Positions 23,422 to 50,651 are shown, counted from the stretch's first letter. The stretch: DNA of 64,000 nt from a virus (IMGVR_UViG_3300034418_011550:1-64000); one strand, 5' to 3'. Notes: a model not told the origin generated them from the letters alone. Numbers and translations are program-made.

Positions 23422-23424
23422 ATC

Positions 23425-26068: not shown

Positions 26069-29000
26069 ATGGCTAAAGTTAGATATCTTGATCAGGTACC
26101 CGTTGGTGTTTACAATACAGCTGGCTCCGGCGGTACTGGTGCTATTGATATATATTATACTGGCTCCTTAATAAAAGCTAGTGCTCCTTTTATCAATTTT
26201 ACCGGCTCAGCTGAAGCTTTCACAGAAGTAATATCTGGGACTGAAGGAGTAACAGTTTATATATCAGGTTCAGGAGTTGGATTTCCATTCTCAGGATCAG
26301 CAGTAATTACAGGTTCATTAGTAATTTCAGGTTCAGCAGAACCTATTATAATTCAAACATTACCATATGAAGCTAGTCCTTCATATGTTGTAACATATGT
26401 TCCTGCCTCAGGAGTATTAGAATATTCTGATATGCCATCAGATGGTACTTCAGGTTCAAGCGGCTCTTCAGGAACAAGCGGTAGCTCAGGTTCATCCGGC
26501 ACTTCAGGAAGTTCTGGTTCTAGTGGAACAAGTGGTTCTTCAGGAACATCAGGTTCTAGTGGAACATCTGGCTCAAGTGGTTCTAGTGGTACATCAGGTT
26601 CATCAGGCTCATCTGGTTCAAGTGGTACTAGCGGCTCATCAGGTTCATCTGGCACTTCAGGTAGTTCAGGTTCAAGTGGTTCAAGTGGAACAAGTGGTTC
26701 ATCTGGCTCTTCAGGTACTTCTGGTTCTTCAGGAACATCAGGTTCATCTGGCACTTCTGGTTCCTCAGGTACATCAGGCTCAAGTGGCACTTCAGGTTCA
26801 TCTGGAACCTCAGGTTCTTCAGGTTCATCAGGTACTAGTGGCTCTTCAGGTTCATCAGGTTCATCAGGTTCTAGTGGTTCAAGTGGAACTTCTGGTTCAT
26901 CTGGATCTAGTGGAACCTCAGGAAGCTCAGGCTCATCTGGCTCATCAGGCTCAAGTGGAACTAGTGGTAGTTCAGGCTCATCAGGAACCTCAGGTTCTTC
27001 AGGGTCTAGTGGAACATCAGGAGTTAGTGGTATATCAAGTGGATTAGTTTATTATTATGACGGACCAACAGCATCACAAACAGTTCCTATAACATCTTTA
27101 ATTACCGATGATTTAATTTTATTCCCTAATACAGGATCACAAACAACTATTTCAACAACAAGTTTTGATCCTGCGGATGGAGACACTGAAATAGTTCAAT
27201 ATGTTACTCCATCAGCATCTTTAGCTACAACAGTAATAGTTCCTGGGTTATGGGTAAATAATTTATTTGCACAAAGAACAGCTGGAACAGGTACTCTTGT
27301 TTATTGGATTGTTATTGATGAAATGCAATCTAATGGAACAACTCTTATTGCTAATATTGCATCAGGAAATGCTGGTTCGGGTACTCCTATTACTAATACC
27401 CAAAACAATTATATTTATTCTTTATATGTTCCTTCATATGTTTTAGCATCAGTTAACTCAAGAATTAGAGTTAGTGTTTACGCAAACACAACAGGTAATA
27501 ATACTGCGTTTGATATTGAAATGAGAGATAATACTCTCTCAAACATAGTAACAACATTAGCTGCTAATATAGCTGGAACTTCAGGAACAAGCGGTAGCTC
27601 AGGTTCATCTGGCACTTCAGGAAGTTCTGGTTCTAGTGGAACAAGCGGTTCTTCAGGTTCATCTGGTACTTCTGGGTCATCAGGATCTAGTGGTACTAGT
27701 GGCAGTTCAGGTTCTAGCGGAACAAGCGGTTCTTCTGGCTCTTCAGGAACTTCAGGTATAGATGGAACAAGCGGCTCATCAGGATCTAGTGGTACATCAG
27801 GTAGTTCAGGTTCTTCTGGAACTAGTGGCTCATCTGGTACTTCTGGTTCATCAGGTTCAAGCGGAACTTCAGGTTCATCTGGAAGTTCAGGTACTTCTGG
27901 CTCATCAGGTAGTTCAGGTACTTCAGGCTCATCAGGCACTTCAGGCTCATCAGGCACTTCAGGCTCATCTGGAAGTTCAGGTACATCTGGTTCATCAGGT
28001 TCATCAGGAACAAGCGGCTCATCAGGTAGTTCAGGTACTTCTGGCTCATCAGGTAGTTCAGGTACCTCTGGTTCATCAGGTACCTCTGGCTCATCAGGTA
28101 GTTCAGGTACTTCAGGTTCATCAGGTAGCTCTGGTTCTTCAGGTACCTCTGGTTCATCTGGTTCTAGTGGAACAAGCGGTTCATCTGGTACTAGTGGTAG
28201 TTCAGGTACTTCAGGTTCATCCGGTACTTCAGGTAGTTCTGGTTCTAGTGGAACTAGCGGTTCATCAGGCACTTCAGGTAGCTCTGGTTCTTCAGGCACT
28301 TCAGGCTCATCAGGTTCATCAGGTACAAGTGGCTCAAGTGGCAGCTCAGGTACTTCAGGTATAAGTGGTGTTAATGGAACTTCAGGTTCTAGCGGCACTT
28401 CAGGTTCTTCAGGAACCTCAGGCTCATCAGGCAGTTCAGGAACTAGTGGTTCTAGTGGTACTTCTGGTTCATCTGGATCAAGTGGCACCTCAGGTTCATC
28501 TGGAACTTCAGGTAGTTCAGGTTCATCAGGAACAAGTGGTTCAAGTGGTTCAAGTGGTTCTTCAGGAACTAGTGGCTCATCAGGCTCATCAGGTACAAGT
28601 GGCTCATCAGGCAGCTCAGGTACTTCAGGTATAAGTGGTGTAAATGGTACTAGCGGTTCTTCAGGAACCTCAGGTTCAAGTGGTACTTCAGGCAGCTCAG
28701 GTTCATCAGGAACATCAGGTGTTGACGGTACTTCTGGATCAAGTGGCACCTCAGGTTCATCTGGAAGTTCAGGAACTTCAGGTTCATCAGGAACAAGTGG
28801 TTCTTCAGGAACTTCAGGTTCAAGTGGTTCAAGCGGAACAAGTGGCTCAAGTGGTTCTTCTGGGACAAGTGGTTCATCAGGTACTTCAGGTTCATCAGGT
28901 ACCTCAGGCTCATCAGGCAGCAGTGGTACATCAGGTATAAGTGGAGTAAACGGAACTAGCGGCTCATCAGGATCAAGTGGAACATCAGGTTCTTCCGGTT

Positions 29001-32000
29001 CATCAGGAACATCTGGTTCTTCTGGAACATCTGGCTCAAGCGGAACTAGTGGTTCATCAGGTTCATCTGGCACTTCAGGTTCATCAGGTTCTAGTGGAAC
29101 TTCAGGTTCATCAGGTAGTTCAGGAACTAGTGGCTCAAGTGGAACAAGTGGTTCCTCAGGAACTAGCGGCTCATCAGGTTCATCAGGTACAAGCGGCTCA
29201 AGTGGCAGCTCAGGTACTTCAGGTATATCAGGTGTAAACGGTACATCTGGCTCAAGCGGAACAAGCGGTTCTTCAGGAACTAGCGGTTCATCAGGTTCTA
29301 GTGGTACTTCAGGAAGCTCTGGTTCTTCAGGAACTAGTGGTTCATCAGGTACTTCAGGCTCTTCAGGTTCATCAGGAACTAGTGGATCTAGTGGGACATC
29401 TGGTTCTTCAGGAACAAGTGGATCTTCTGGTTCATCAGGAACTAGCGGTAGTTCAGGTTCATCAGGAACTAGTGGTTCATCAGGCTCGTCAGGAACTAGT
29501 GGAATTTCAGGTATAAATGGTACTAGTGGTTCATCAGGAACTAGCGGTAGTTCAGGAACATCAGGTTCATCAGGTTCATCTGGAACAAGCGGTTCAAGCG
29601 GAAGTTCAGGTACATCTGGTTCATCAGGTACTTCAGGAAGTTCAGGTTCAAGTGGTTCATCAGGAACTAGCGGTTCATCAGGTTCATCAGGTACTAGCGG
29701 TTCTAGTGGAACTAGTGGTTCTTCAGGAACATCAGGTAGTTCCGGTTCATCAGGTACTTCAGGTTCATCTGGTTCCTCAGGTTCAAGTGGATCTTCAGGT
29801 TCATCTGGTTCAAGTGGTACATCAGGTAGCTCAGGTACTAGTGGTTCTTCTGGTTCATCAGGCACTTCAGGCTCATCGGGTTCAAGTGGAACTAGTGGTT
29901 CTTCAGGTTCAAGTGGCACTTCAGGTATAAGTGGTATAAATGGTACCTCTGGTTCATCAGGAACTAGTGGCTCATCAGGAACTTCTGGCTCAAGTGGTTC
30001 ATCAGGAACTAGCGGTAGTTCAGGTTCATCAGGAACTTCAGGAAGTTCAGGTACATCTGGTTCATCTGGTTCATCTGGTTCATCTGGTTCAAGCGGAACA
30101 AGCGGTTCTAGCGGTACTTCAGGATCAAGTGGTTCAAGCGGAACTTCAGGTTCATCTGGTTCTTCTGGTACAAGCGGAAGTAGTGGTACAAGTGGCTCGT
30201 CAGGAACAAGTGGAAGCTCAGGCTCATCAGGAAGTTCAGGTTCAAGCGGTTCATCAGGAACTTCAGGCTCGTCAGGAACAAGTGGAAGCTCAGGTACTTC
30301 AGGATCAAGTGGCTCATCAGGTACTAGTGGTTCATCAGGAAGCAGTGGTACTTCAGGTATAAGTGGTGTAAACGGAACTAGTGGTAGTTCTGGTTCATCA
30401 GGCACAAGCGGTAGTTCAGGTTCAAGTGGTTCAAGTGGAACAAGTGGTTCTTCTGGTTCTTCAGGTACTTCTGGTTCTTCAGGAACATCAGGTTCATCTG
30501 GCACTTCAGGCAGCTCAGGTTCAAGTGGTTCATCAGGAACAAGTGGCTCTTCAGGAAGCAGTGGTACTTCAGGGTCAAGTGGATCAAGCGGCACTTCAGG
30601 TAGTTCAGGTTCAAGTGGAACTAGCGGTTCATCAGGTAGTTCAGGCAGCTCAGGTAGTTCAGGTTCATCAGGAACAAGTGGTTCTTCTGGTTCATCAGGA
30701 ACAAGTGGTTCTTCAGGTTCATCAGGAACATCTGGCTCAAGTGGTTCATCAGGTAGCTCAGGCACTTCAGGTATAAGCGGTGTAAACGGAACTTCAGGTT
30801 CAAGTGGTTCAAGTGGAACAAGTGGTTCATCTGGCTCTTCAGGAACAAGTGGCTCTTCAGGTTCATCAGGAACTAGTGGCTCATCAGGTAGTTCTGGCTC
30901 ATCTGGTACTTCAGGTTCATCAGGTAGTTCAGGAACTAGTGGTTCATCTGGCACTAGTGGTTCATCAGGTTCTTCAGGAACTTCTGGCTCATCAGGCTCA
31001 TCTGGTTCATCTGGTACTTCAGGATCATCAGGTTCATCAGGTACTTCTGGTTCAAGTGGCTCATCAGGAACAAGTGGTTCTTCAGGTTCATCAGGAACTA
31101 GTGGTAGTTCAGGTTCAAGTGGTTCATCTGGCACATCTGGTAGTTCAGGGAGTTCAGGCACTTCAGGTTCAAGTGGCTCATCAGGAACTTCAGGTATATC
31201 AGGTGTAAATGGAACTAGCGGATCTTCAGGTTCATCAGGAACAAGTGGCTCAAGTGGTTCTAGTGGAACTAGTGGTTCATCAGGATCTAGTGGAACAAGC
31301 GGTAGTTCAGGTTCATCAGGAACTAGCGGCTCATCAGGTTCATCAGGAACATCAGGTAGTTCAGGTTCATCCGGAACAAGTGGTTCTTCAGGCACGTCTG
31401 GTTCTTCAGGAACTAGCGGTTCATCTGGAACATCTGGCTCATCAGGTTCATCAGGTACATCTGGCTCATCAGGTAGTTCTGGCTCATCTGGTACTTCAGG
31501 TTCATCAGGAACAAGTGGTTCATCAGGATCAAGCGGTACCTCAGGATCAAGTGGTTCATCAGGAACTAGCGGTTCTAGTGGCTCATCAGGTACATCCGGA
31601 AGCTCAGGCTCATCCGGCACATCAGGTATAAGCGGTGTTAATGGAACATCAGGTAGCTCAGGAACATCAGGTTCATCTGGTACTTCAGGTTCAAGCGGAA
31701 CTTCAGGTTCTTCAGGTTCATCTGGAACTAGTGGTAGCTCAGGTTCTTCAGGTACATCAGGTTCAAGTGGAACAAGTGGTTCAAGCGGAACAAGTGGTTC
31801 ATCTGGAAGTTCTGGAACAAGCGGTTCTTCTGGTTCAAGTGGAACATCAGGAAGTTCAGGTACATCAGGTTCTTCTGGTTCAAGCGGAACTTCAGGTTCA
31901 TCTGGCTCATCTGGAACTAGTGGTTCTTCTGGTTCAAGTGGTACTAGTGGTTCATCTGGAACAAGCGGTTCAAGTGGAACTTCAGGTTCAAGTGGTTCAT

Positions 32001-35000
32001 CAGGAACCAGTGGTAGTTCAGGTTCATCAGGAACTAGCGGCTCATCAGGTTCATCAGGAACATCAGGTAGTTCAGGTTCATCCGGAACAAGTGGTTCTTC
32101 AGGTTCATCAGGTACTAGTGGTTCATCTGGTTCATCTGGTTCAAGCGGAACTTCTGGTTCATCAGGTTCATCAGGTACTTCTGGTTCATCAGGAAGCAGT
32201 GGTACTTCAGGTATAAGCGGTGTTAATGGAACAAGTGGTTCAAGCGGTTCTTCAGGTTCATCAGGATCTTCAGGTACAAGCGGTTCATCAGGTTCAAGTG
32301 GCACAAGCGGTTCAAGTGGTAGTTCAGGTACAAGCGGTTCATCAGGTTCATCAGGGTCCTCAGGTACAAGTGGTTCATCCGGCTCATCAGGAACATCAGG
32401 TTCTTCAGGAACATCTGGTAGTTCAGGTTCTTCAGGAACTAGTGGTTCATCTGGCTCATCTGGCTCATCAGGTACTAGTGGCTCATCAGGCTCATCTGGT
32501 ACTTCAGGTTCTTCAGGCACTAGTGGTTCAAGTGGTTCATCAGGTACATCAGGTAGTTCTGGCAGCTCAGGAACTTCTGGCTCATCAGGCTCATCTGGAA
32601 CTTCTGGCTCATCAGGTAGCAGTGGTACTTCAGGTATAAGCGGTGTAAACGGAACTTCTGGTTCATCAGGTTCATCAGGAACTTCAGGTTCATCAGGGTC
32701 CTCAGGTACAAGTGGTTCATCTGGTTCTTCAGGCACCTCTGGTTCTTCTGGCTCATCTGGAACTTCTGGTTCATCAGGATCTAGTGGTACTAGCGGTTCA
32801 AGTGGTTCTTCAGGAACTAGTGGTTCATCTGGTTCATCTGGTTCAAGTGGTACATCAGGTTCTTCAGGTTCTTCAGGTACAAGTGGATCAAGTGGAACCT
32901 CAGGCAGCTCAGGTTCATCAGGAACTTCAGGATCATCAGGCAGTTCAGGTTCAAGTGGAACAAGCGGAAGTTCAGGATCTTCAGGTACTTCAGGTTCATC
33001 TGGCTCATCTGGATCAAGTGGAACTTCAGGTTCATCAGGATCTTCAGGTACAAGTGGCTCATCAGGAACTAGTGGAAGTTCAGGTTCATCAGGTACTTCT
33101 GGTTCTAGTGGTTCTAGCGGCTCAAGCGGAACAAGTGGTTCAAGCGGTAGTTCAGGTACCTCAGGCTCATCTGGTTCTTCAGGTACATCAGGTATAAGTG
33201 GTGTTAATGGAACTAGCGGTTCATCTGGATCAAGTGGAACATCAGGTTCAAGTGGTTCATCAGGAACAAGTGGTTCAAGTGGTTCTTCTGGGACAAGTGG
33301 TTCAAGCGGAACATCAGGTAGCTCAGGTTCTTCAGGTACAAGTGGATCAAGTGGAACCTCAGGCAGCTCAGGTTCATCAGGAACTTCAGGATCATCAGGC
33401 AGTTCAGGTTCAAGTGGAACAAGCGGAAGTTCAGGTACTTCAGGAAGTTCTGGTTCTTCAGGTACAAGCGGTTCATCTGGTACTTCAGGTTCAAGTGGAA
33501 CTAGTGGTTCATCTGGTTCATCAGGATCATCTGGTTCTTCAGGAACTTCTGGCTCTTCAGGAACTAGTGGTTCATCAGGAACATCAGGTTCAAGTGGTTC
33601 ATCAGGTACATCAGGCAGCTCAGGTAGCTCAGGTACATCAGGCATATCAGGTGTAAATGGAACAAGCGGTTCATCAGGAACTTCAGGTTCTAGTGGTTCA
33701 TCAGGAACAAGCGGTTCATCAGGAACTTCAGGTTCATCTGGAACAAGTGGTAGTTCAGGTTCAAGTGGAACATCAGGCAGCTCAGGTTCAAGCGGAACTA
33801 GTGGTTCAAGCGGTTCATCAGGCACTTCAGGTTCATCTGGATCTAGTGGAACAAGTGGTTCAAGTGGTACTTCAGGTTCATCAGGCACTTCAGGTTCATC
33901 TGGTTCATCAGGTACTAGTGGTTCAAGCGGTTCATCAGGAACAAGCGGTTCAAGCGGTACTTCAGGTAGTTCAGGTACTTCAGGATCATCTGGCTCAAGT
34001 GGTACTTCAGGTTCATCTGGTTCAAGCGGAACTAGTGGTTCATCAGGTTCATCAGGTACTTCAGGATCTTCAGGATCTTCAGGTACTTCAGGTATAAGTG
34101 GTGTTAATGGTACTTCTGGTTCCTCAGGAACTAGCGGTTCATCAGGCACTTCAGGTTCAAGTGGTTCATCAGGAACTAGTGGATCAAGTGGTTCTAGCGG
34201 GACAAGTGGTTCAAGCGGTTCATCTGGAACATCAGGTTCTTCTGGTTCCTCAGGAACTAGTGGCTCAAGCGGTACTAGTGGAAGCTCAGGCTCATCAGGA
34301 ACATCTGGTAGTTCTGGTAGTTCAGGTACTAGTGGTAGTTCTGGTACTTCAGGTTCAAGCGGAACTAGTGGTTCATCAGGTTCATCAGGAACTTCTGGCT
34401 CATCTGGTTCATCAGGAATATCAGGAAGTTCAGGAACATCTGGCTCAAGCGGCTCATCAGGAACTAGTGGTTCTTCAGGTTCAAGTGGAACTAGTGGTTC
34501 TAGTGGAACTTCAGGTTCTTCAGGAACAAGTGGTTCTAGTGGCACTTCAGGTTCAAGTGGCTCATCAGGAACTTCTGGATCAAGCGGTTCATCAGGTACA
34601 TCAGGCTCAAGTGGCTCAAGTGGTTCAAGTGGTACTTCAGGAAGCTCAGGTTCAAGCGGAACAAGCGGCTCATCAGGAACTAGTGGTTCATCTGGCTCAA
34701 GTGGAACATCAGGTTCATCAGGAACAAGCGGCTCATCAGGAACAAGTGGAAGCTCTGGAACATCAGGTTCTAGTGGCTCATCAGGTACAAGTGGCTCATC
34801 AGGTAGCTCAGGTACCTCAGGTATATCAGGTGTAAATGGTACTTCAGGTTCTTCAGGAACTAGCGGAAGTTCAGGAACATCTGGCTCATCAGGCTCATCT
34901 GGTACTTCAGGTTCAAGTGGTTCATCAGGAACTAGTGGAAGCTCAGGTACTTCAGGTTCTTCAGGTACATCAGGCTCTTCTGGAACATCAGGTTCTAGTG

Positions 35001-37746: not shown

Positions 37747-37750
37747 ATAA

Positions 37751-40390: not shown

Positions 40391-41083
40391 ATGGCAATAC
40401 CTAGTACTAATGTTTATTTAGAAAATATTTATTGGGAAGCTCAATTTGGAGGAGGAAGTGGTAATCCTGGTAGTGGAATTAGTTTTGGAGACTTAGCAGG
40501 ATATTCTTATTTTGATGGTTCTAATGGTAGTGGTACTATATCCTACAACGCCTGGGGCCAAAATTCAGCAGGAGGTGTAAATAGAATATATGGCTTACCT
40601 ATAGCTGCTAACCCCGGACCTTATGAATTTAATGATTATAAAAGTTTAGTTTATTTTTATGATCAAAGTAGTTATCAAGTTACTTTAACTGTAATAAATA
40701 ACCTAGCTCCACCTCCACCTCCACCTCCTCCTATTAATAACGATGTACAAGACTGCAATTTATCCTTTTATGACAATTCAGGAACTTATCTTTATTTAGC
40801 AGGTAACTCAGGAGGAGTACCAACATTTAGTAGTTTTGGCCCTACAGACATATCACAAAATAATACCCCTATTATAGCCCAAGGTTATTGGTATATAGAT
40901 TTAAGTATGGATCCTGGTTTTGGAGGAGGTTCTTGTGACATAAGCATAAATGGAACAGGATATGTTACAGGAGCAGGAATAGGTGGAGGTAGTAACCTTT
41001 TTGATTGGAATACATATGGAGCGGCGGCTATAGCTAATGCTGGATCTTTTATTGGATTAGATGTGGTAGTAACTGTTTATTAA
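40391..41083 (+). CDS. Fibre-associated protein with poly-Pro linker
   Basis: 230 aa, G/S/N-rich, contains APPPPPPPPI. Confidence 0.6.
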   Translation: MAIPSTNVYLENIYWEAQFGGGSGNPGSGISFGDLAGYSYFDGSNGSGTISYNAWGQNSAGGVNRIYGLPIAANPGPYEFNDYKSLVYFYDQSSYQVTLTVINNLAPPPPPPPPINNDVQDCNLSFYDNSGTYLYLAGNSGGVPTFSSFGPTDISQNNTPIIAQGYWYIDLSMDPGFGGGSCDISINGTGYVTGAGIGGGSNLFDWNTYGAAAIANAGSFIGLDVVVTVY

Positions 41084-41085
41084 TT

Positions 41086-41283
41086 ATGCCTACTTATACT
41101 TTTATATCAACAAGACAATTTTTAGGTTATATACCTTCATCTACTTTAGAAGAAACCATTTTTAATAAATGTAAAGAAGTAAAATCTTTATATAGAATTA
41201 GCGGAGTTAACCCTAGATATTATTTTTACCTTACAACTTTTTTACAAGAATATTTTCAAGATAAAGTAGGAAATCCGGAATAA
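41086..41283 (+). CDS. Hypothetical protein
   Basis: 65-aa ORF filling the gap, 2 nt after the upstream stop. Confidence 0.5.
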   Translation: MPTYTFISTRQFLGYIPSSTLEETIFNKCKEVKSLYRISGVNPRYYFYLTTFLQEYFQDKVGNPE

Positions 41284-41285
41284 AA

Positions 41286-41316
41286 TTTGGTTTTTTAAAA
41301 TAAATTTGTTATATTA
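41286..41316 (+). promoter_or_regulatory. Putative host-sigma-type promoter TTTGG-N19-TATATTA
   Basis: tttgg 41286-90, tatatta 41310-16; heads the glycosylation operon. Confidence 0.55.
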
Positions 41317-41325
41317 TAATTAATT

Positions 41326-41907
41326 ATGTACTCTAGACCTATATTTGATCCTAATTTAGAAATTGATCAAACAAACTACTACTGGTTCGAAAATGGATTC
41401 TCTTCAGATGAAGCAGATGAAATCTTAAAACTTACAAAAGACTATGAATTTGAACAAGCTACTATTATATCTGGCAATACATCAGATATAAGAAATAGTA
41501 ATATCAAATGGATAGCACCAAGTGAAAATTCTTCTTGGATTTATGACCGTTTAATGGGTTGTATTAAAGAAGCTAATAGTGTTTGGAAATTTAATCTTTA
41601 TTCTGTTTTAGATGATATTCAATATACAGAATATAGAGGCGGTGGTGGACATTATAACTGGCATATAGATATCGGCCCAGGTTCAATTTCCCATCGTAAA
41701 GTATCAGTTATTGTACAACTTTCTGATCCTTCAGAATATACTGGAGGTGTTTTAGAAATTAGTTCAGGCAGTAACACCCAAAAAGTTTCAAATAAAAAAG
41801 GAGCAGTTATTGTTTTCCCTTCATTTTTACAACACAGAATAACCCCTGTAGCCTCAGGTTTAAGAAAAAGCTTAGTATTATGGGCTGGTGGAGAACACTA
41901 TAAGTAA
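41326..41907 (+). CDS. 2OG-Fe(II) oxygenase (prolyl-hydroxylase / PKHD-like)
   Basis: WHID (HxD), RKVSVIVQL, GGVL, FPSFLQHRITPV, R-x-S (RKSLV). Confidence 0.88.
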   Translation: MYSRPIFDPNLEIDQTNYYWFENGFSSDEADEILKLTKDYEFEQATIISGNTSDIRNSNIKWIAPSENSSWIYDRLMGCIKEANSVWKFNLYSVLDDIQYTEYRGGGGHYNWHIDIGPGSISHRKVSVIVQLSDPSEYTGGVLEISSGSNTQKVSNKKGAVIVFPSFLQHRITPVASGLRKSLVLWAGGEHYK

Positions 41908-41908
41908 T

Positions 41909-42898
41909 ATGATTGACAATTTAGTTAAATTAGTTTTAAATAAAGGAGGTTCTATATCTCATTTAAAGATTCCTTCAATTGATAGTAGAAATACAGGTTT
42001 ATGTAATCCCTCTATTTTTGTTGATAATGATGGAACTATTTTACTTAATTTAAGAAATGTAGGTTATCTTTTTTACCATTGTGAAAATGAACAAAAGTTT
42101 CAAGGACGTTGGGGCCCATTAGCTTATCTTCATCCTGAAAATGATCCACATTTAAGAACAACTAACTTTTTATGTATTTTAGATCCTAAAACTTTAGAAA
42201 TAAAATCATACAAAGAAGTAAACACTTCAGAGTTAGACATTGAACCAGTTTGGGAATTTATTGGGTTAGAAGATGCTCGAGTAGTTCGTTGGGATGGTGT
42301 TTTATATATTACAGGTGTTAGAAGAGATACTAAACCAAATGGAGAAGGTAGAATGGAACTTTCTGAAATAGATGATTATAGAACATCAAATGAAATCTCA
42401 AGAGTAAGAATAGAACCACCTAATGATCCTAATTCATATTGTGAAAAAAATTGGATGCCTATTAATGATATGGATTATTGTTATGTCAAATGGGCTAACC
42501 CAGTAGAAATTGTAAAAGTTGATCCTATTAAAGGAACTAGTAAAACTATATTTTTAGGTAAATTTAAAGAAATAAGTAAAAACCATGATTTAAGAGGTGG
42601 TTCATCTGTTGTGAAATGGAAAGATTATCGTTTATGTGTTGTTCATGAAGTAGATTTTTGGCAAAATGAAAATAATAATAAAGATGGTATTTATAACCAT
42701 AGAATAATTGTTTATGATAAAGATTGGAATATTGTAAAATATTCTGATGTATTTAAGTTTATGACTGGAAGAATTGAATTTGTTTGTGGAGCAGCGGTTG
42801 TGGAAAATGATTTAATTATCACTTATGGATTCCATGACAGCGCAGCTTTCGCTTTAAAAATCCCAGAAAATGTTGTAGAGGAACTAATCAATGGATAA
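41909..42898 (+). CDS. Five-bladed propeller glycoside hydrolase/phosphorylase-like (GH130/GT91-like)
   Basis: CNPSIF, GLEDARVV, EKNWMP, LRGGS, IEFVCG; start moved to 41909. Confidence 0.6.
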   Translation: MIDNLVKLVLNKGGSISHLKIPSIDSRNTGLCNPSIFVDNDGTILLNLRNVGYLFYHCENEQKFQGRWGPLAYLHPENDPHLRTTNFLCILDPKTLEIKSYKEVNTSELDIEPVWEFIGLEDARVVRWDGVLYITGVRRDTKPNGEGRMELSEIDDYRTSNEISRVRIEPPNDPNSYCEKNWMPINDMDYCYVKWANPVEIVKVDPIKGTSKTIFLGKFKEISKNHDLRGGSSVVKWKDYRLCVVHEVDFWQNENNNKDGIYNHRIIVYDKDWNIVKYSDVFKFMTGRIEFVCGAAVVENDLIITYGFHDSAAFALKIPENVVEELING

Positions 42899-44120
42899 TA
42901 TTTTAAAGAATTTTATAGATAATCCATATCATCCAGAAACAAATTTTGTATTTGGTGAACAATATTATCAAGAAGGACATAAAGCAGCCGCTTTGTCTTT
43001 ATTTTTAAGAGCAGCAGAATATGGTTTTGATAAAGATTTAACATATGAAGCTTTAATTAAAGTAGCTTTATGTTTAAAAGAAATAGAAGGACGTCCTCAT
43101 TCAACTAGAGGAGCTATCTTAAATGCTATTACTTTTGATCGTGAACGTCCTGAAGCTTATTATCATTTAAGTTATGATTATCAAGTTAAAGGAGAATGGC
43201 AAGAATCATATTTAGCAGCTGTTCAAGGTTTAGATAAAATAAAAAATATCAAACCTACTTTAACTAGTATTGATTTTCCTGGTGAATATGCTTTAATATT
43301 CCAAAAAGCAGTAGCAGGATGGTGGATTGGATATTGTGATGAGTCAAGAAAATTATTTAATCACTTATTACAGGAATATTCTATGCGTCCTGAATTTGTA
43401 GAAGCTTGCTATAATAATTTATCTACAATTCATGGGATTCAATATCCAACGTTAACTTATACTAAAGAAGAACACTCAAAATTAAGATACAAATTTAAAA
43501 ATTCTGAAAAAATTGAGAAAAATTATTCCCAAACTTACCAGGATTTGTTTGTATTAAGTATGTTAGATGGAAAAGAAAAAGGCACTTATGTTGAAATAGG
43601 AGCAGCTGATCCTTTCCATAATAGTAATACAGCTTTATTAGAAAAAGAATTTAACTGGACAGGGGTATCATTAGAAATCAATGAAGAAGAAGTAAATAAA
43701 TTTAACTCTCAACGTTCTAACGCGTGCCTTTTACAAGATGCTACAGTTGTCAACTATGAAGAGTTATTTGTTAATAACAACTTTAGTGAGGTTATAGATT
43801 ACCTTCAAGTTGATTGTGAACCGGCTGAAATAACATTTAAAGTGTTACTTTCAATTCCTTTTGATAAATATAAATTTAGAGTAATCACCTTTGAACATGA
43901 TTATTATTTAAATCATTCTTTAGATTATAGAAATCTTTCTAGAAAATTCTTAGAAGCTCATGGTTATAAAAGAGTAGTAGGAGATATAGCTCCTGACTCA
44001 AATAGTACATTTGAAGACTGGTGGATACATCCTGAATTAGTAGATTCTGAAATTTTTACAGCAATGGTAGATTATTCTGAAAAAATTAAAAGAGCAGATC
44101 ATTATATATTAAATGGCTAA
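42891..44120 (+). CDS. TPR-like repeat + FkbM-family methyltransferase fusion
   Basis: Helical N-half (FLRAAE, RPEAYY); C-half YSQTYQD, YVEIGAAD, DYLQVDCEP, ITFEHD. Confidence 0.75.
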   Translation: MDNILKNFIDNPYHPETNFVFGEQYYQEGHKAAALSLFLRAAEYGFDKDLTYEALIKVALCLKEIEGRPHSTRGAILNAITFDRERPEAYYHLSYDYQVKGEWQESYLAAVQGLDKIKNIKPTLTSIDFPGEYALIFQKAVAGWWIGYCDESRKLFNHLLQEYSMRPEFVEACYNNLSTIHGIQYPTLTYTKEEHSKLRYKFKNSEKIEKNYSQTYQDLFVLSMLDGKEKGTYVEIGAADPFHNSNTALLEKEFNWTGVSLEINEEEVNKFNSQRSNACLLQDATVVNYEELFVNNNFSEVIDYLQVDCEPAEITFKVLLSIPFDKYKFRVITFEHDYYLNHSLDYRNLSRKFLEAHGYKRVVGDIAPDSNSTFEDWWIHPELVDSEIFTAMVDYSEKIKRADHYILNG

Positions 44121-44958
44121 TCAAGATTGGAAAATAACACCCTATGCTACTATGGAGATTACAACTAATCTACCTAAAAAAGGCTGTGTTGTTGATTGCA
44201 TTTTTTGTCCTCAAAGAACTTTAGTTAAAAATTATAATGGAACCCGTCATTTATCTTTAGATGACTTTAAAAGAGCAATAGATAAAATCCCAACAGAAGT
44301 TAGAATTACTTTTGCTGGTTTTACTGAACCTTGGACTAATAGGCATTGTACTGATATGTTACTTTACGCTTATGAAAAAGGACATAGAATAGCAGCATTT
44401 ACTACAGCTGTAGGAATGACAGTAGATGATGTAGAAAGACTTAAAGATGTTTCCTATGATAATGGTCCTAACGCTGGTTTTGTTTTACATTTACCTGACC
44501 AAGAAAGATTAGCAAAACATCCTATAACTCCTCGTTATATAGAAGTTATTGAAGCTTTCGGGCTCTATCAAGATTCTTTTAACACATTTCATTTAATGTC
44601 AATGGGTACTGTCCATGAATCTATTAATCATATTTTTAGTCATGCTAGCAATCCTGAAATGTGGTCTAGAGCAGGAAACTTAATAGGTGAAGCCATTCTA
44701 AAACCAGAACTGCTAAATGTTAAAGAATTATTCAGATCAGTATATCATGGTGAGTCACCTAAAACATGCGGCTGTATAGAAAATTTATACCATAACGTGA
44801 TGCTTCCAAACGGAGATGTATCTTTATGTTGTATGGATTATTCTTTAAGTTATATTATAGGAAATATGTTTGAACAAGAATATGAAGATGTTATTCCAAA
44901 ATTAAATTCTTGTTATGATATGTGTCGTTATTGTGAAAATGGAATTAACCCTAATTAA
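44113..44958 (+). CDS. Radical SAM protein with SPASM/twitch domain
   Basis: CVVDCIFCPQ (CxxxCxxC), FAGFTEP, C...PNGDVSLCCMD...IGN...CRYC. Confidence 0.88.
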   Translation: MANQDWKITPYATMEITTNLPKKGCVVDCIFCPQRTLVKNYNGTRHLSLDDFKRAIDKIPTEVRITFAGFTEPWTNRHCTDMLLYAYEKGHRIAAFTTAVGMTVDDVERLKDVSYDNGPNAGFVLHLPDQERLAKHPITPRYIEVIEAFGLYQDSFNTFHLMSMGTVHESINHIFSHASNPEMWSRAGNLIGEAILKPELLNVKELFRSVYHGESPKTCGCIENLYHNVMLPNGDVSLCCMDYSLSYIIGNMFEQEYEDVIPKLNSCYDMCRYCENGINPN

Positions 44959-44961
44959 AAT

Positions 44962-45963
44962 ATGAAATCAATAATTATAGTTTCTGCTTATTGCCCTGAT
45001 GATGAAAGAAAAACAATGCTTGAAAATTGTATTAATTCTCTTCAACCTATTAGAAAAGATTTTGATATTTTAATTTCAAGCCATTCTTATATTCCTGAAT
45101 ATATTAGTAAAAAAGTAGATTTTACTTTTTATGATGCTAACAATGATTTAATATATGATTGGGATTTAATGAATCTTCCATGGTTTTCACCTTATGAAGG
45201 TTTACATATAGTTTCTTCATTAATATCTAATTTTAGTACTTATTCTGCTTGTAATAGAATAATAATGGGTGGTTTAGGTATAGCTAAAAATTTTGGATAT
45301 GAAAAAGCCCATTATATAGATTATGATGCTATTATTAATGATTATTCTGAGTTTTATGAAAATAATGAATTACTAAATAAGTATGTAACAATCCAATATA
45401 AAAAAGAATACAGAAATTTTGATTGGAATGTTGAAGGTGGTGTAGGTGTTTTCCAATCAATAAATTTAAATAAAATAAATAAAATTTTTACAACATATGA
45501 TGAAAAAGAGTTATTAAAAATTCTAAAAGAAGCCCCTAATAAAACAAATGAAATTATATATCAGGATTTATATAAATTAGATGGAGAGGAAATATTGTAT
45601 AAAAACTGGGATGATTTACTAAATCAAGGAAACATATTTAATCAATCTATATCTACACAAAAAGATGATTTAAATGATTGGACTGTTCCTTTTTATGATA
45701 CTAAAACAGGTAAATTAAATGTTATTGTTTGGAACTCTAAAAAAGATTATCCTATTAATACTAGTTTTATTATAAATCAAGAAAAAATAATCACAATAAA
45801 CAATATAAACAAATACCAATGGAGTATAAGAGAAGTAGATGATATCAATAATGTTAATGAAATATTAATTATTGTTGATAACAAAATTAAAAACCACATC
45901 CTAATAAACACCCCAGAATTAAAAGAGAAATTTAAACGTAATAATCAAACACAATATAATTAA
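44962..45963 (+). CDS. Putative GT-A glycosyltransferase-like protein
   Basis: N-terminal IIIVSAY strand, HYIDYD (DxD). Confidence 0.5.
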   Translation: MKSIIIVSAYCPDDERKTMLENCINSLQPIRKDFDILISSHSYIPEYISKKVDFTFYDANNDLIYDWDLMNLPWFSPYEGLHIVSSLISNFSTYSACNRIIMGGLGIAKNFGYEKAHYIDYDAIINDYSEFYENNELLNKYVTIQYKKEYRNFDWNVEGGVGVFQSINLNKINKIFTTYDEKELLKILKEAPNKTNEIIYQDLYKLDGEEILYKNWDDLLNQGNIFNQSISTQKDDLNDWTVPFYDTKTGKLNVIVWNSKKDYPINTSFIINQEKIITINNINKYQWSIREVDDINNVNEILIIVDNKIKNHILINTPELKEKFKRNNQTQYN

Positions 45964-46887
45964 ATGAAAAAAATAGCTTTAATAACTAGTTTTTGCAATA
46001 ATAAGGAAAAAATTAATGTGTTAAAAAATAAATTAGAGACATTAAAAAATCTTAATATAGATACAATCCTTTATACAGCTATCCACCTCCCAGAAAAAAT
46101 TTATAAAAAAGCAGACTATACTATAATTTCAAAAGAAAACCTAGTATTTGATTGGCCTATAAAAGCTTACTATCAATGGACTGATATTATTATTGGAAAC
46201 CTAAACATTAAAATGAGTCGCACATACCCAGATTATGGTTATGCTGTTTTAAATCAAATTAAAAAAATGGCTAATTTAGCTTTATCTATGGATTATGATC
46301 ACTTTTTTATAATAGATTATGATACTCATATCACTGATGAAGTAAAAAATATTCTTTTAGACAGTAAACCAAATAGTTTTTTTCCATCAAAAAGAGAAAC
46401 ATCTGTTTGGCCTATAGGACTTCATTTAATATCTTTAAATAAAACTTATTTAAATAGGTTTAAAAATCTAATAACCCCAGAATCTTATCTAACTGAAAAA
46501 AATGGAGATGCTTTTTCATGGACTCATAAAGCTATAAAATTTATTCCTGCTGTTATTGAAAATGTTGAACCTATAGAAGATTTAGTTTATAATTTTAATG
46601 AGTTTGATTTTTTTAATTATTCTACAACAAATGAGTATAAATTATTTATTCATAAAACAGACTTTGATAATATAAAACTTCTTTTTTATGAATTTGAAGG
46701 AGTTAAAAATATAAAAATTATAAGTGATAATTTTGAAAAAGAATTTAATTTAAAAACTTGGGAACATATTGAATTACCATTTAATACTTGTTCTTTATTA
46801 AAAATTTTATGTAATGATGAAGAAATTGATTATACAAAAAACATAATTTCTATTGGACAAAATATTTTAACAATTAATAATATATGA
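45964..46887 (+). CDS. Putative GT-A glycosyltransferase-like protein (paralogue of upstream gene)
   Basis: IALITSFC, FIIDYD (DxD). Confidence 0.5.
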   Translation: MKKIALITSFCNNKEKINVLKNKLETLKNLNIDTILYTAIHLPEKIYKKADYTIISKENLVFDWPIKAYYQWTDIIIGNLNIKMSRTYPDYGYAVLNQIKKMANLALSMDYDHFFIIDYDTHITDEVKNILLDSKPNSFFPSKRETSVWPIGLHLISLNKTYLNRFKNLITPESYLTEKNGDAFSWTHKAIKFIPAVIENVEPIEDLVYNFNEFDFFNYSTTNEYKLFIHKTDFDNIKLLFYEFEGVKNIKIISDNFEKEFNLKTWEHIELPFNTCSLLKILCNDEEIDYTKNIISIGQNILTINNI

Positions 46888-47723
46888 TAAATGTAACTTA
46901 TAATAGAGAAAATAATTCAACTTTAGTAGAATTAAATAATTTAACTTTAATTAAAGAACACCTTCCATTAACTATCCAATTTAAAAATATTATTTCAAAA
47001 GAAATCCATTATGAAGTTAAATTAACAGACAATTGTTGGGCAGAATGGAAAGGTGGAGAATTTATTACTGATGTTTTGATTTATTCTTCTAATGGGACTT
47101 TATTACATGAACATAAATGGGATGTCACTGTTAATGGAGATATTCATGAAAAAATGTTATGGTACTATTTAAAAGGTAGACAATTACAAGGATTAAAATC
47201 TAACGGTTTAGTTATTGGTGCTCATGATGGAAGAAACGGACATTGGATATACCCCGTTAAAGAAAATTTAACAGAAGCTACTTTAATTGACGGTAGTGAT
47301 AACCAGTTTAAAAAACTAGAAGAAAATTATTTTAATTATTTAAATACAAAATTTAAAAATATTATAGTTACAACAGATGGATCTGATGTAGAATGGTATC
47401 AAGGCGGAGAAGGCTATACAGATACAGTAATACCATCAGTAATCAATGAATGGTTAGACTCTTCAGAAATAACTAAAACGTATAGAAAAAGTATATCAAT
47501 TAATGATTTAATAAAAGATCAAAATTATGATTGGTTACATTTAGATGTAGAAGGTTTAGATGGAGATTTAATTTTAGCTTTGGAATCTAGACCTAATTTA
47601 ATAATTTATGAAGATGAAAATTTAGATATAATTACTAAAGCTAAGCTTGATATTTGGTTTTTAGCAAATTCTTATAAAACAATTAAACACACTTGTAATA
47701 CACTAGCTATTAAAAATGACTAA
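46884..47723 (+). CDS. Beta-domain + FkbM-like methyltransferase
   Basis: LVIGAHDG, LHLDVEG, IIYE. Confidence 0.65.
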   Translation: MINVTYNRENNSTLVELNNLTLIKEHLPLTIQFKNIISKEIHYEVKLTDNCWAEWKGGEFITDVLIYSSNGTLLHEHKWDVTVNGDIHEKMLWYYLKGRQLQGLKSNGLVIGAHDGRNGHWIYPVKENLTEATLIDGSDNQFKKLEENYFNYLNTKFKNIIVTTDGSDVEWYQGGEGYTDTVIPSVINEWLDSSEITKTYRKSISINDLIKDQNYDWLHLDVEGLDGDLILALESRPNLIIYEDENLDIITKAKLDIWFLANSYKTIKHTCNTLAIKND

Positions 47724-49995
47724 ACCAAAAGTATATGTTCATGGTTCTTATATAGGAACTACAGGTTATAACCAACATACAAGAGACTTTTTTAGAGAGT
47801 TATCTAAACATTTACAATTAAAAGTTAGGAATTTCACAATTGGTAAAACATGGGAAAGTTTTAATAATACCCCTCATAATAATGAACCTTATATTAATGA
47901 AATAGATAAATCTATTTTATATGAACAGATATTATGGAATGATAAGGGTGGGAGAGATAACTATAAAATATATTCTGACAAATCTAAAGAATTTCTACAT
48001 GATTTAAATATTGTTTTATGTGAAACTAATCATCATTTATTTTATGATGGATACAATGGTCCAAAAATAGCTTATAATGTTTGGGAAACAACCCAACAAC
48101 CAGAAGAATTTTTTAATAAATTAAAAGAATTCGATGAATTATGGGTTCCTTCAAAATGGCAGCGTGATGTAACTATTAAACAAGGCTACCCAAAGGATAA
48201 AATTAAAGTTGTTCCTGAAGGAGTTGATATTCATACTTTTTACCCTGAAGAAACAACTCATGAGTTAACTTCAGATGGTAGATTTAAATTCTTTTTAGCA
48301 GGTAGATGGGATTATAGAAAATCAACTAAAGAAATTATTGAAACATTTTTAAATACATTTAATGAAAATGATCCTGTTGACTTAATTGTTTCTATAGATA
48401 ATCCTTTTTCAGGAGATGGTTTAGAAACAACAGAAAATAGATTAAAATATTATGGTTTAACAGATCCAAGAATTAAAGTAGTTCATTTTCCATCTAGAGA
48501 AGATTATATTAAAATACTAAAATCATGTAATGTGTTTTTATCTTGTGCTCGTTCTGAGGGTTGGAATTTACCTTTAATTGAGGCAATGGCCTGTGGTATA
48601 CCCTCTATTTATTCAAACTGTTCAGGTCAACTTGAATTTGCTGAAAATAAAGGAATACCAATAAATATATTAGGTGAAAAATCAGCAAATGATTCATCAT
48701 ATAATCATTTTAATGATTACACAGGTAATTATTATGAACCTGATTTTAACCATTTACAACTAATGATGATGTATTCTTATAAAAAGTATGATGAATGTAA
48801 GAAAAATGCTTTAAAAGAATCAGAAGAAATTAAACATAATTTTAGTTGGGAAAAAGTAGGACAAATTGGTTATAAAACTATAATAGAATTTTATGAAAGG
48901 AATAAACATAAAAATGCTCAATTAAAAAATGAAATAAAAATTAGTTATTTTGATGGTCCTAAAATAGAAATTGTAGGAGATAAACTAGAACAATATCATA
49001 TTGAATTTTTAGATGAAAATAATAATATTATTCATGAGGACACTATCACTAATAATATGTGGACAAAATGTTCTAGAACCTATTATACTAAATGGAAAAT
49101 TAAAGTTAATGGAAATATAATTGAAGAACTTAACTTAAATAATAAACGAGTATTAATAGGATTAGAGTCAAAATCTATTGGTGATACAATTGCTTGGACA
49201 CCCTATGCTGTTGATTTTGCTAAAAAACATAATTGTAAAGTAATTTTAAGCACATTTCATAACCATTGGTTTAAAGGATTAGAGACATATAAAGACATTG
49301 AATTTATAGAACCAGGACAATCAATAAACTGTGATGTTATATATCGAATAGGATGGTTTAGAGGAGAATCAGGTAAATGGGACAAATTTGAAATGTATCC
49401 TAATTATCCTCAAACTCAACCACTCCAAAAAACAGCATCAGATATTTTAGGTTTAGAATTTAAAGAATTAAATTATGGGATAAATTTTGCCCCAAAATCA
49501 AAATCAATAAAAACAAATTATATTGTTATTGCCCCTGAATCAACTGCTGGTTGTAAAGAGTGGCCTTATGACAGTTGGGTATCATTATCTAAAATGTTGC
49601 GTGAATTAGGATACACAGTAGTAACACTTACAAATAAACCCTATAATATAAAAGGTAATTTAAATATTCACGGTAAAACATTAAATGAATCTATGGATAT
49701 TCTTTATAATGCTAAATTTTTAATAGGATTAAGTTCAGGACTATCTTGGATAAATTGGGCTTTAGGAAAACAAACAGTGATGATTAGTGGTTTTTCTCAA
49801 AAAGATCATGAATTTATATCTAATAATATAAGAATACAAAATGAACATGCTTGTAATTCATGTTGGAATAATACTAACTTTATTTTTGACCCTGGAAATT
49901 GGGATTGGTGCCCAATATGGGAAGGAACAGATAAACAACATATTTGTGAAAAATCAATCTCACCATTAACTGTATTTAATTTATTACCTTTATGA
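47716..49995 (+). CDS. GT4 glycosyltransferase fused to TibC/Aah-family protein O-heptosyltransferase (GT9-like)
   Basis: GT4: VPSKW, KFFLAGRWDYRK, SEGWNLPLIEAMACG. TibC-like: YFDGPK beta domain, SIGDTIAW, GLSSGLSW, MISGF, HACNSCWN...WCP...C. Confidence 0.85.
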   Translation: MTKPKVYVHGSYIGTTGYNQHTRDFFRELSKHLQLKVRNFTIGKTWESFNNTPHNNEPYINEIDKSILYEQILWNDKGGRDNYKIYSDKSKEFLHDLNIVLCETNHHLFYDGYNGPKIAYNVWETTQQPEEFFNKLKEFDELWVPSKWQRDVTIKQGYPKDKIKVVPEGVDIHTFYPEETTHELTSDGRFKFFLAGRWDYRKSTKEIIETFLNTFNENDPVDLIVSIDNPFSGDGLETTENRLKYYGLTDPRIKVVHFPSREDYIKILKSCNVFLSCARSEGWNLPLIEAMACGIPSIYSNCSGQLEFAENKGIPINILGEKSANDSSYNHFNDYTGNYYEPDFNHLQLMMMYSYKKYDECKKNALKESEEIKHNFSWEKVGQIGYKTIIEFYERNKHKNAQLKNEIKISYFDGPKIEIVGDKLEQYHIEFLDENNNIIHEDTITNNMWTKCSRTYYTKWKIKVNGNIIEELNLNNKRVLIGLESKSIGDTIAWTPYAVDFAKKHNCKVILSTFHNHWFKGLETYKDIEFIEPGQSINCDVIYRIGWFRGESGKWDKFEMYPNYPQTQPLQKTASDILGLEFKELNYGINFAPKSKSIKTNYIVIAPESTAGCKEWPYDSWVSLSKMLRELGYTVVTLTNKPYNIKGNLNIHGKTLNESMDILYNAKFLIGLSSGLSWINWALGKQTVMISGFSQKDHEFISNNIRIQNEHACNSCWNNTNFIFDPGNWDWCPIWEGTDKQHICEKSISPLTVFNLLPL

Positions 49996-50651
49996 TAAAC
50001 TTAGAAAATTTTAATTGGGGCCCAACATCAGAATGGTATAAAGATCAACTTACTAGAGAAATGTTTGAAGAAAACATTTATGAAAAATATTTTCCTGTTG
50101 AAGAAGGAGATATAGTAGTTGACTTTGGAGCCTCTATAGGAGACTTTATCTGGTCTATTAAGGATAAAAAACCAAAACATTGTTGGGTTGTTGAACCTTT
50201 AAATTCATATTTTGATATTTTACAAGAAAATTTATTAGGTTATTCTGTTTCTTTTATTAAAGCTTTTCTTAGTCAAGAAGAAACAACAGAAGTACAATGG
50301 GATGGGTTAGCTAGTGAATGTAGAAGTTTAACTTTTAAAAAATTTATAAAAGAAAATAATATTAAATATATTGATTTTTTAAAAACAGATTGTGAAGGAG
50401 GTGAGTATAGCATCTTCACAGAAGAAAATATAGAGTATGTTTTAAACAACATTAGAAAAATATCAGGAGAATGGCATTTAAGCACTCCTGAATTAAAAGA
50501 AAAATTTAGAAATTTTAGGGATAACTACTTAATTAAATTTAATAATTTTGAAGTTTATTCTGTAGACGGTGTTAATATCAAATGGGATTTATGGAATGAA
50601 CATTTTATAGAGTATTATAATGAAGTTATAATTCATATAGATAATCGTTAA
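49992..50651 (+). CDS. FkbM-family methyltransferase
   Basis: VVDFGASIG, IDFLKTDCEGGE, GEWH. Confidence 0.85.
   Translation: MINLENFNWGPTSEWYKDQLTREMFEENIYEKYFPVEEGDIVVDFGASIGDFIWSIKDKKPKHCWVVEPLNSYFDILQENLLGYSVSFIKAFLSQEETTEVQWDGLASECRSLTFKKFIKENNIKYIDFLKTDCEGGEYSIFTEENIEYVLNNIRKISGEWHLSTPELKEKFRNFRDNYLIKFNNFEVYSVDGVNIKWDLWNEHFIEYYNEVIIHIDNR

Follow-up and report, generated by a model that had tools for sequence, protein, structure and literature searches.

The bacterial autotransporter heptosyltransferases (BAHTs) TibC and Aah of Escherichia coli (TIGR04414; PDB 4RAP and 4RB4; PMC4358343) are cytoplasmic enzymes, each encoded beside a highly repetitive, Ser-rich protein (TibA and AIDA-I, respectively) that offers very many potential acceptor sites. 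O-glycosylation of Ser in proteins is the only known activity of their family. Here, we describe a comparable arrangement in a phage, found in a 64,000-nucleotide (nt) stretch of viral DNA (IMGVR_UViG_3300034418_011550:1-64000), which we refer to as the window and whose positions are counted over its full length on one strand. Between positions 26069 and 50651, two genes for collagen-like Gly-X-Y fibers (fibA and fibB) stand ahead of a run of nine enzyme genes, one of which (GT759) encodes a TibC/Aah-type domain fused to a GT4 glycosyltransferase; we call the fibers and enzymes together the island. We favor, with moderate confidence, the view that these enzymes modify the phage's own fiber proteins before or during assembly by glycosylation, methylation, and hydroxylation. 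The nine genes themselves appear to be a composite of at least three separately traveling modules with different fiber partners.

Two kinds of described system resemble the presumed substrates. The exosporium collagen BclA of Bacillus anthracis and Bacillus cereus has GPT repeats with O-glycosylated Thr, and in the cuticle collagen of Riftia galactosylated Thr stabilizes the helix. Both are Gly-X-Thr helices with Thr O-glycans, some of them methylated, and fibB has GPT/GTT chemistry likewise; they differ in being cellular proteins modified by other glycosyltransferases, and fibA lacks Pro and is an order of magnitude longer. Among viruses, Mimivirus has the collagen hydroxylase/glycosyltransferase L230 and fibril glycans, chloroviruses have A064R with its methyltransferase domain, and PBCV-1 has a prolyl 4-hydroxylase. 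Such giant viruses bring their own hydroxylase, glycosyltransferases, and sugar methyltransferases for surface proteins, independently of the host endoplasmic reticulum and Golgi apparatus, as we presume for the phage described here. They are, however, viruses of eukaryotes with unrelated enzyme families, and lysyl hydroxylation was ruled out for fibB, whose helix contains zero Lys residues.

We know of no BAHT enzyme, collagen-like acceptor, hydroxylase, or radical S-adenosylmethionine (SAM) enzyme involved in the virion glycosylation of mycobacteriophages. In that system (Freeman et al., 2023), glycosyltransferases encoded beside structural genes reportedly O-glycosylate the phages' own virion proteins, the acceptors being the C termini of capsid and tail-tube subunits of actinophages, whereas the presumed acceptors in the window are fibers. 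A literature search returned no description of TibC-type enzymes, prolyl hydroxylases, or such an island in phages, the search term "TibC" being confounded by unrelated uses. The window adds three points: its nine genes can be divided into three modules, a 2-oxoglutarate (2OG) oxygenase is linked with Pro-containing fibers, and propeller, FkbM, and radical-SAM domains occur as one fusion.

RESULTS

A TibC/Aah-type domain in a phage glycosyltransferase

GT759 (47716 to 49995, + strand; 759 amino acids [aa]) has a GT4 N-terminal half (PF00534, 1.4e-13) and a C-terminal half (~48892 to 49995) that scores 214.1 bits, against a cut-off of 200, with the NCBIfam equivalog "autotransporter strand-loop-strand O-heptosyltransferase" (TIGR04414), covering profile positions 10 to 369 of 374. 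This half aligns with TibC (PDB 4rap) over 326 residues (E = 5e-35) and gives only 32 bits against lipopolysaccharide (LPS) heptosyltransferase I. The GT4-TibC-like label given to the gene in an earlier reading of the window by a model (the sequence-only reading) is borne out by these matches, and the C-half is, by sequence, a bona fide member of the BAHT family.

The structure of TibC assigns the role of catalytic base to Asp110, heptose binding to Thr226, Lys230, Arg286, and Trp305, an iron finger to four cysteines (Cys339, Cys342, Cys358, and Cys370), and stereoselectivity to the position of Pro300, and it describes a beta-hairpin thumb (Phe265/Val266) that builds the dodecamer (PMC4358343). 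GT759 retains Asp110 (as the Asp of an SIGD motif), three of the four sugar-binding residues (Thr226, Lys230, and Trp305), and all four iron-finger cysteines. In 12 phage homologues, the catalytic Asp (D98 of our alignment A5), Lys230, Trp305, and the cysteines (C321, C324, C340, and C352) are invariant. At the Pro300 position, GT759 has Ser, as Aah does. Unlike TibC and Aah, GT759 is phage encoded and fused to a GT4, its presumed acceptor is a Gly-X-Y fiber and not a beta-helical autotransporter (none of which was found in the window), and enzymes for extension and methylation are encoded alongside.

The two halves of GT759 are separate genes in more distant relatives. In one relative, a 1243-aa protein (L017:2792-6523) combines GT4 and TibC-like domains with a PIG-L/LmbE-type de-N-acetylase, and no Gly-X-Y fiber was found in the available 25-kb fragment; this fusion hints at possible N-acetylhexosamine-type chemistry in the glycan. 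The BAHT profile matched 918 clusters (50% identity) at E ≤ 1e-30.

Two collagen-like fibers of different composition

The first fiber gene, fibA (26069 to 37738, + strand), encodes a 3889-aa, Pro-free (Gly-Ser/Thr-Ser)n protein with a globular N terminus, an internal nonrepeat domain of ~180 aa, and a C-terminal domain of ~275 aa. It matches Pfam Collagen, and its C-terminal domain matches phrog_17490 at 1.7e-46. Its 1103 in-register Gly-X-Y triplets form two arrays (66 and 1037) with zero register breaks and are nearly all GSS (619) or GTS (376); the protein has 2261 Ser and Thr residues combined, and the arrays contain neither Pro nor charged residues. Because they lack both, a triple helix of unmodified fibA is doubtful. 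If triple-helical, fibA would be roughly 1 μm long (3309 residues at the helix rise of ~0.29 nm per residue). Truncated homologues reach at least 2233 aa (L119) and 2457 aa (L011).

Nineteen GISG(V/I)NG landmarks punctuate fibA between residues 764 and 3566 (window 28358 to 36790), their spacing increasing stepwise from ~30 to ~47 and then to 50 to 83 triplets. All of them include an N-G-T sequon; we identified no N-glycosyltransferase. Because the repeat units found by TRF match at only 62 to 80% in most arrays and six Ser codons are in use, the periodicity does not stem from recent DNA amplification and is maintained at the protein level.

The second gene, fibB (37751 to 40390, + strand), encodes an 879-aa fiber that also matches Pfam Collagen. 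Its 233 in-register triplets, again with zero register breaks, have mainly Pro (66/233) or Thr (55) at X and mainly Thr (121/233) or Gln (86) at Y. The C terminus is a self-cleaving, trimerizing Peptidase_S74 chaperone (7.7e-20) such as phage fibers typically have, and fibB also has tail-fiber PHROG matches.

Enzyme genes covary with the composition of neighboring fibers

We compared the window with relatives at 80 loci anchored on the sheath gene and 35 anchored on GT759 (handles beginning with L). Where a BAHT gene was present with enough upstream sequence, a Gly-X-Y fiber was nearly always found 5' of it, and extending two contigs uncovered fibers that had been cut off. On informative loci, the table of BAHT by Gly-X-Y fiber was 30/4/3/20.

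Pooling all fetched loci gave 55 distinct Gly-X-Y open reading frames (ORFs). In this set, the Ser/Thr fraction was at least 0.55 in 26 of the 28 ORFs with a BAHT gene within 6 kb and in 8 of the 27 without one. Pro made up at least 5% of the X/Y positions in 13 of the 16 ORFs with a 2OG gene within 6 kb and in only 1 of the 39 without one, and this second pairing includes loci that have no BAHT gene.

A second phage group (contigs of 57 to 476 kb), reached via a distant multidomain BAHT representative, has a different layout, with the fiber on the opposite strand and no sheath gene nearby. Even so, 15 of 24 BAHT loci have a giant Gly-X-Y ORF of up to 3192 aa, Pro free and rich in Ser/Thr, no more than a few kb away. 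These loci include L199, whose contig is that of L038, a locus of the window's lineage. The second group is an independent line for the pairing of BAHT and fiber. No cellular (nonphage) pairs of this kind were found: the genome collection gave two contigs, both of them phage contigs of the window's lineage in Flavobacteriales metagenome-assembled genomes (MAGs).

A composite of putative modules

The first enzyme gene (41326 to 41907, + strand) encodes a 2OG-Fe(II) oxygenase of the prolyl-hydroxylase-like (PKHD/P4Hc) kind. It matches PF13640 with 56.3 bits against a cut-off of 27 (6.8e-15), PDB 3dkq at 3.3e-8, and PiuC, and it has the HxD...H iron triad and the distal Arg (WHIDIG, QHRITP, and RKS). 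In 2OG-anchored loci, the gene lies just downstream of a Pro-containing Gly-X-Y fiber, even where no BAHT gene is nearby (L122, L125/126, L129, and L130-134).

Phage 2OG enzymes (TET-like) with glycosyltransferases are reported to hypermodify DNA (Pyle, 2024), and the island could likewise act on phage DNA, with the oxygenase oxidizing a methylated base and the glycosyl- and methyltransferases decorating it. The oxygenase in the window, however, matches PF13640 and PKHD hydroxylases, with no TET/JBP match, and the island contains no DNA cytosine methyltransferase or nucleotide-metabolism gene. Its genes lie among fiber, neck, and sheath genes, and the presence of the 2OG gene follows how much Pro the neighboring fibers contain. 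To our knowledge, FkbM enzymes are not DNA methylases either, and we consider DNA hypermodification extremely improbable.

The next three genes belong together in relatives. The product of g336 (41888 to 42898, + strand) is a predicted five-bladed propeller of the GH130/GT108 fold (beta-mannoside phosphorylase/synthase/transferase-like). It has no sequence-level match in PDB or Pfam, but the 36 best Foldseek matches of its AlphaFold2 (AF2) model (pLDDT 85.4, pTM 0.87) are all GH130/GT108 except for one low-TM BamB (E of 3e-9 to 5e-6, TM of 0.47 to 0.57). The top matches (9erg, 7fip, 5b0p, and 6q4z), which include GH130 phosphorylases/synthases and Leishmania GT108, share only 12 to 16% identity with it. 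Many of its 3358 homologues are fused to FkbM or GT25. The adjoining gene, g409 (42891 to 44120, + strand), encodes a tetratricopeptide repeat (TPR)-like N-half (TIGR02795, 1.1e-4) and a possible FkbM-like methyltransferase C-half (PF05050, 0.0099; 16.4 bits, below the cut-off of 22.7). It is followed by a gene for a 281-aa radical-SAM/SPASM enzyme (44113 to 44958, + strand) with a CX3CX2C motif at residues 25 to 32 (C25-C29-C32) and seven C-terminal cysteines, scoring 28.5 bits for Radical_SAM (just under the cut-off of 29.5) and 22.1 for SPASM (cut-off 21.5).

Many relatives encode a single 843-aa polypeptide that joins a g336-like propeller, an FkbM219-like methyltransferase, and a radical-SAM/SPASM domain (L181:9041-12126; also in L164-L198). 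The protein encoded next is TPR only and corresponds to the N-half of g409 (in L181, this half equals the stand-alone TPR protein). The fusion and the TPR protein adjoin Gly-X-Y fibers (35 to 53% Ser/Thr) in loci that have neither a BAHT nor a 2OG gene. Because their counterparts are fused as one protein in relatives, the g336, FkbM-type, and radical-SAM genes of the window would form one functional unit. In L122, a block of 2OG, g336, g409, and radical-SAM genes is placed elsewhere, with the neck genes lying downstream of it.

Most GH130 enzymes are catabolic phosphorylases, and sequence does not reveal the substrates of radical-SAM and FkbM enzymes; these points would suit an auxiliary metabolism that leaves the fibers unmodified and yields a methylated oligosaccharide, free or lipid bound, or another small product. 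The fusion of a GH130-like domain with a methyltransferase and a radical-SAM domain beside a TPR protein, however, suits tailoring better than catabolism. The BAHT family is protein directed, and relatives without the island also lack the fibers, so that we think a free product very improbable. Fusion to a methyltransferase and a radical-SAM domain is, as far as we know, not a feature of characterized GH130 or GT108 members.

The remaining enzyme genes flank GT759. The product of g333 (44962 to 45963, + strand) is a putative GT-A-type glycosyltransferase with an IDYD motif, of which Y121-D122 is invariant in 11 homologues, and g307 (45964 to 46887, + strand) is its paralogue. Neither has a sequence match in Pfam, NCBIfam, or PDB. 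The N-terminal Rossmann-like part of the AF2 model of g333 (pLDDT 58) weakly matches GnT-I and TarP (~155 residues, E ≥ 7e-3), and a g333-like domain recurs within 660- to 1120-aa enzymes of relatives. A ~100-aa N-terminal domain and a divergent FkbM-type methyltransferase make up g279 (46884 to 47723, + strand), which aligns with the FkbM219 family by hhalign (90%, E = 1.6e-6) and matches PF05050 at 0.043; a profile search of PDB with the g279 alignment gave nothing usable. FkbM219 (49992 to 50651, + strand) is an FkbM-family methyltransferase above the cut-offs of both PF05050 (34.9 bits against 22.7) and TIGR01444 (39.6 against 37.7).

Most labels that the sequence-only reading had attached to these genes hold: the 2OG oxygenase by its PF13640 match, the GH130-like propeller by its fold, the radical-SAM/SPASM enzyme by its motif and borderline scores, FkbM219 by both of its profiles, and, probably, the FkbM assignment of g279 by profile-profile comparison. 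Of the label TPR-FkbM for g409, the first half stands and the second falls below the cut-off; in the two "DxD proteins," the DxD is present in g333 and g307, but a GT-A fold is only weakly indicated by the model. One operon building one methylated glycan, as had been envisaged, is too simple, with relatives showing at least three modules. As judged from these loci, the 2OG gene tracks Pro-containing fibers, the GT4-TibC-like gene Pro-free Ser/Thr fibers, and the fused unit Gly-X-Y fibers generally.

Layout of the island and its insertion slot

The ORFs of both fibers and of the nine-gene enzyme run (41326 to 50651) ahead of the sheath gene lie exactly where the sequence-only reading had placed them, and its description of the run as very AT rich and tightly coupled is accurate. 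The enzyme genes have a GC content of 22 to 32%, compared with 30 to 36% in nonfiber flanking genes and 46 to 47% in the fiber genes, and their junctions range from a 20-nt overlap to a 3-nt gap. From fibA through the sheath gene, every gap is at most 49 nt. The promoter that had been proposed for the operon does not hold up: a 65-aa ORF (41086 to 41283, + strand), whose DNA is conserved 3' of a g230 homologue in L011-L013 and L020, fills most of the supposed promoter gap and leaves 42 nt, and promoter motifs were not above shuffled expectation. A sigma-70 scan gave 79 sites (81.6 expected), TAnnTTTG had 71 occurrences (90 expected), and the full Bacteroidota promoter pattern had 2 (0.8 expected). 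No transmembrane-like segment was found in any of the nine operon proteins. The enzyme genes are translationally coupled within the late block, with soluble, cytoplasmic products.

LPS and capsule loci typically encode GT4, GT-A-like, GT9-related, and FkbM enzymes, and some g336 homologues are fused to GT25 and carry the JGI name "LPS biosynthesis." The island could in principle remodel LPS or capsule of the infected host, for instance as a barrier to superinfection or to free progeny. Its proteins, however, have no membrane segment, it has no flippase, polymerase, or Gtr-type gene, and its place is among the late structural genes of a T4-like phage. The TibC-like half exceeds a protein-specific equivalog cut-off while giving 32 bits against LPS heptosyltransferase I, and LPS remodeling would leave the covariation with fiber chemistry unexplained; we consider this explanation quite improbable.

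The slot that holds the island is bounded upstream by up4 (25096 to 26046, + strand), a conserved structural gene whose homologues are 50 to 70% identical in many relatives and, where the island is absent, end 39 to 1018 nt short of the sheath gene; the gene two upstream of it (23383 to 24573) matches the head-tail adaptor phrog_211. Its downstream edge is formed by g83 and the tail sheath gene (51516 to 53595, + strand; Phage_sheath_1 and 1C). About 20 relatives have a complete neck-to-sheath interval, of 39 to 6420 nt, without BAHT, Gly-X-Y ORF, or island-enzyme homologues, and in island-free relatives the order runs from the neck-side gene to a g273 homologue (where present), g83, and the sheath gene. 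Because these complete intervals lack both fibers and enzymes, the island is an insertion into a variable slot between neck genes and sheath gene. In distant relatives, the recurring core consists of the fiber, often a g230 homologue, a 660- to 1120-aa multidomain enzyme with GT4 and g333-like domains, and a 315-aa GT4-like protein, and it ends with a stand-alone 400-aa BAHT gene just 5' of g83 and the sheath gene. The T4 whisker gene sits in the slot adjoining the neck genes, and because the position matches, the window fibers may be neck or collar fibers rather than tail fibers.

Between fibB and the enzyme genes lies g230 (40391 to 41083, + strand), which encodes a Gly-rich beta protein with a run of eight Pro residues, a fiber-associated accessory for which no family match was found. 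Its homologues stand directly after Gly-X-Y fibers or within ~350 nt (one small ORF) of them (L011, L030, L048, and L078), and in L038 the homologue follows a Ser/Thr-rich ORF that the locus edge cuts; they follow Gly-X-Y fibers in several relatives with or without the 2OG gene.

On the downstream side of the slot, g273 (50682 to 51503, + strand) encodes a Ser/Thr-rich protein without a family match, whose homologues are 21 to 38% Ser/Thr; it is possibly an alternative acceptor or a decoration protein. The sheath proteins of six island-bearing relatives (L016, L017, L005, L008, L015, and L035) are 668 to 889 aa long, with a 100- to 300-aa insert relative to the 592-aa sheath of the window.

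The most serious rival to modification of the fibers starts from these neighbors: the enzymes might glycosylate other virion proteins (g273, the sheath inserts, or the capsid), the fibers being mere neighbors in a variable slot. Capsid and tail tube are the reported substrates in the known phage precedent. The g273 gene lies directly 3' of the enzymes, several BAHT-positive relatives carry the sheath inserts, and loci of the L017 type and L023 keep a BAHT gene without a Gly-X-Y fiber in the slot. Homologues of g273, however, also occur in island-free relatives, and the tracking of Ser/Thr-rich Pro-free fibers by BAHT and of Pro by the 2OG gene is hard to explain if the fibers are bystanders. 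The pairing also recurs in a different gene layout, and we judge this rival unlikely.

Phage lineage, host, and sugar donors

All long ORFs of the window are on the + strand, in DNA of ~30% GC. They encode a T4-type large terminase, portal, prohead protease, Gp23 capsid protein, PhoH, a head-tail adaptor-like protein, and tail sheath and tube, and the window corresponds to the late structural region of an uncultured T4-like myovirus. No nucleotide-level match to it was found in the phage collection; the closest isolate is Flavobacterium phage immuto, whose sheath is 53% identical. Two contigs of the window's phage lineage (L136 and L137) have been assigned to Flavobacteriales MAGs, of which one is Winogradskyella. 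Both carry fiber and TibC-like gene, and L137 also has the sheath and tube genes. They may be misbinned phage DNA, though they hint at the host; they fit, without proving, a flavobacterial host, and the host is probably a member of the Flavobacteriales (Flavobacteria). The structural block also contains three metabolic-looking genes (window 19247 to 20910 and 5590 to 6954), which are DDAH/amidinotransferase-like, phosphatidylserine-decarboxylase-like (adjoining PhoH), and pyridine-nucleotide-disulfide-oxidoreductase-like.

As the sequence-only reading had noted, no nucleotide-sugar synthesis genes were found within the window. A 92%-complete relative (L117; G001:C1:120000-139999) has a second glycan island ~40 kb from the sheath gene, with two GT4s, a DegT aminotransferase, RmlD-like and RmlC-like genes, two SDRs (epimerases/dehydratases), a GT2, and DUF707, together with a PfkB kinase weakly similar to heptose kinase and a rhamnosyl-O-methyltransferase-like gene. 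Matches to HldE kinase and GmhA near the cut-off were found in one phage-bearing Flavobacteriales MAG and none in the other.

DISCUSSION

We infer that the fibers are the acceptors, and the steps, their order, and the sugars are proposed on the same footing. In the pathway that we favor, the TibC-like half of GT759 would attach the first sugar to Ser/Thr hydroxyls of the Pro-free (G-S/T-S)n fiber, the GT4 half and the putative GT-A enzymes g333 and g307 would extend the glycan, and the FkbM enzymes g279 and FkbM219 would O-methylate it, while the 2OG oxygenase would hydroxylate Pro in fibB. The propeller, TPR-FkbM, and radical-SAM/SPASM proteins would act as a self-contained tailoring unit that also serves Gly-X-Y fibers in phages without the other modules, perhaps through a mannosyl-type transfer and then methylation and a radical step, while the TPR domain would keep hold of the fiber. 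Dense glycosylation could stabilize the Pro-free helix, in the way of glycosylated Thr in BclA and Riftia collagen, or shield the fiber.

Several points weigh against modification of the fibers as we envisage it. The glycan, hydroxyproline, and methyl group that we place on the fibers are deduced from genes. TibC Arg286 aligns to Ser in GT759, leaving three of four residues in the heptose-binding set, and a 9-residue gap falls across the TibC thumb hairpin, because of which both the donor and the oligomeric assembly may deviate from what is typical of the family; with Arg286 replaced, heptose as the donor is doubtful. The closest solved relatives of the 2OG oxygenase are PKHD-type hydroxylases named by type only, with no substrate given, and Pro in fibB is at X, whereas classical collagen prolyl 4-hydroxylase uses Y. 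A GT-A fold for g333 and g307 is weakly indicated. The association itself is open to question as well, in that sampling of the pooled ORFs was anchored on the enzymes and their counts ignore relatedness. GT4-BAHT or BAHT genes occur without a Gly-X-Y fiber in the slot or available fragment in L017-19 and L023, and ~9 of the 24 second-group BAHT loci have no fiber within reach. On the sheath tree, BAHT changes state five times and Gly-X-Y six times, and a sign test on this tree had no power, with only three to five independent pairs, so that the co-occurrence stands in the raw table and not as a phylogenetically independent pattern. The within-lineage association rests on few events, and with fibers and enzymes in one mobile cassette, linkage alone could explain part of the pattern.

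A bolder form of the favored reading, which we put forward tentatively and think less likely to be right than wrong, is a complete virus-encoded cytoplasmic pathway of collagen maturation. Methylated O-glycans would replace hydroxyproline on fibA, the hydroxylase would mature fibB, and the fused machine would add a new modification, each module being exchanged together with its fiber.

Matching modules to fibers splits a vague glyco-operon into separately testable enzyme-substrate hypotheses. Should modification of the fibers prove false, the island would remain a clear example of a mobile cassette that occupies the slot between neck and sheath genes in a widespread phage lineage. If it is true, the BAHTs, known only for glycosylating enterobacterial adhesins that serve as virulence factors, would form a large family found mainly in viruses, with a collagen-like fiber as the natural acceptor, and phage virion glycosylation would reach beyond actinophage capsids to T4-like phages of aquatic habitats. 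Such modification would also offer a testable answer to how stable fibers can be made from Pro-free Gly-X-Y sequences, as well as compact sets of soluble enzymes for producing glycosylated or hydroxylated recombinant collagens in bacteria.

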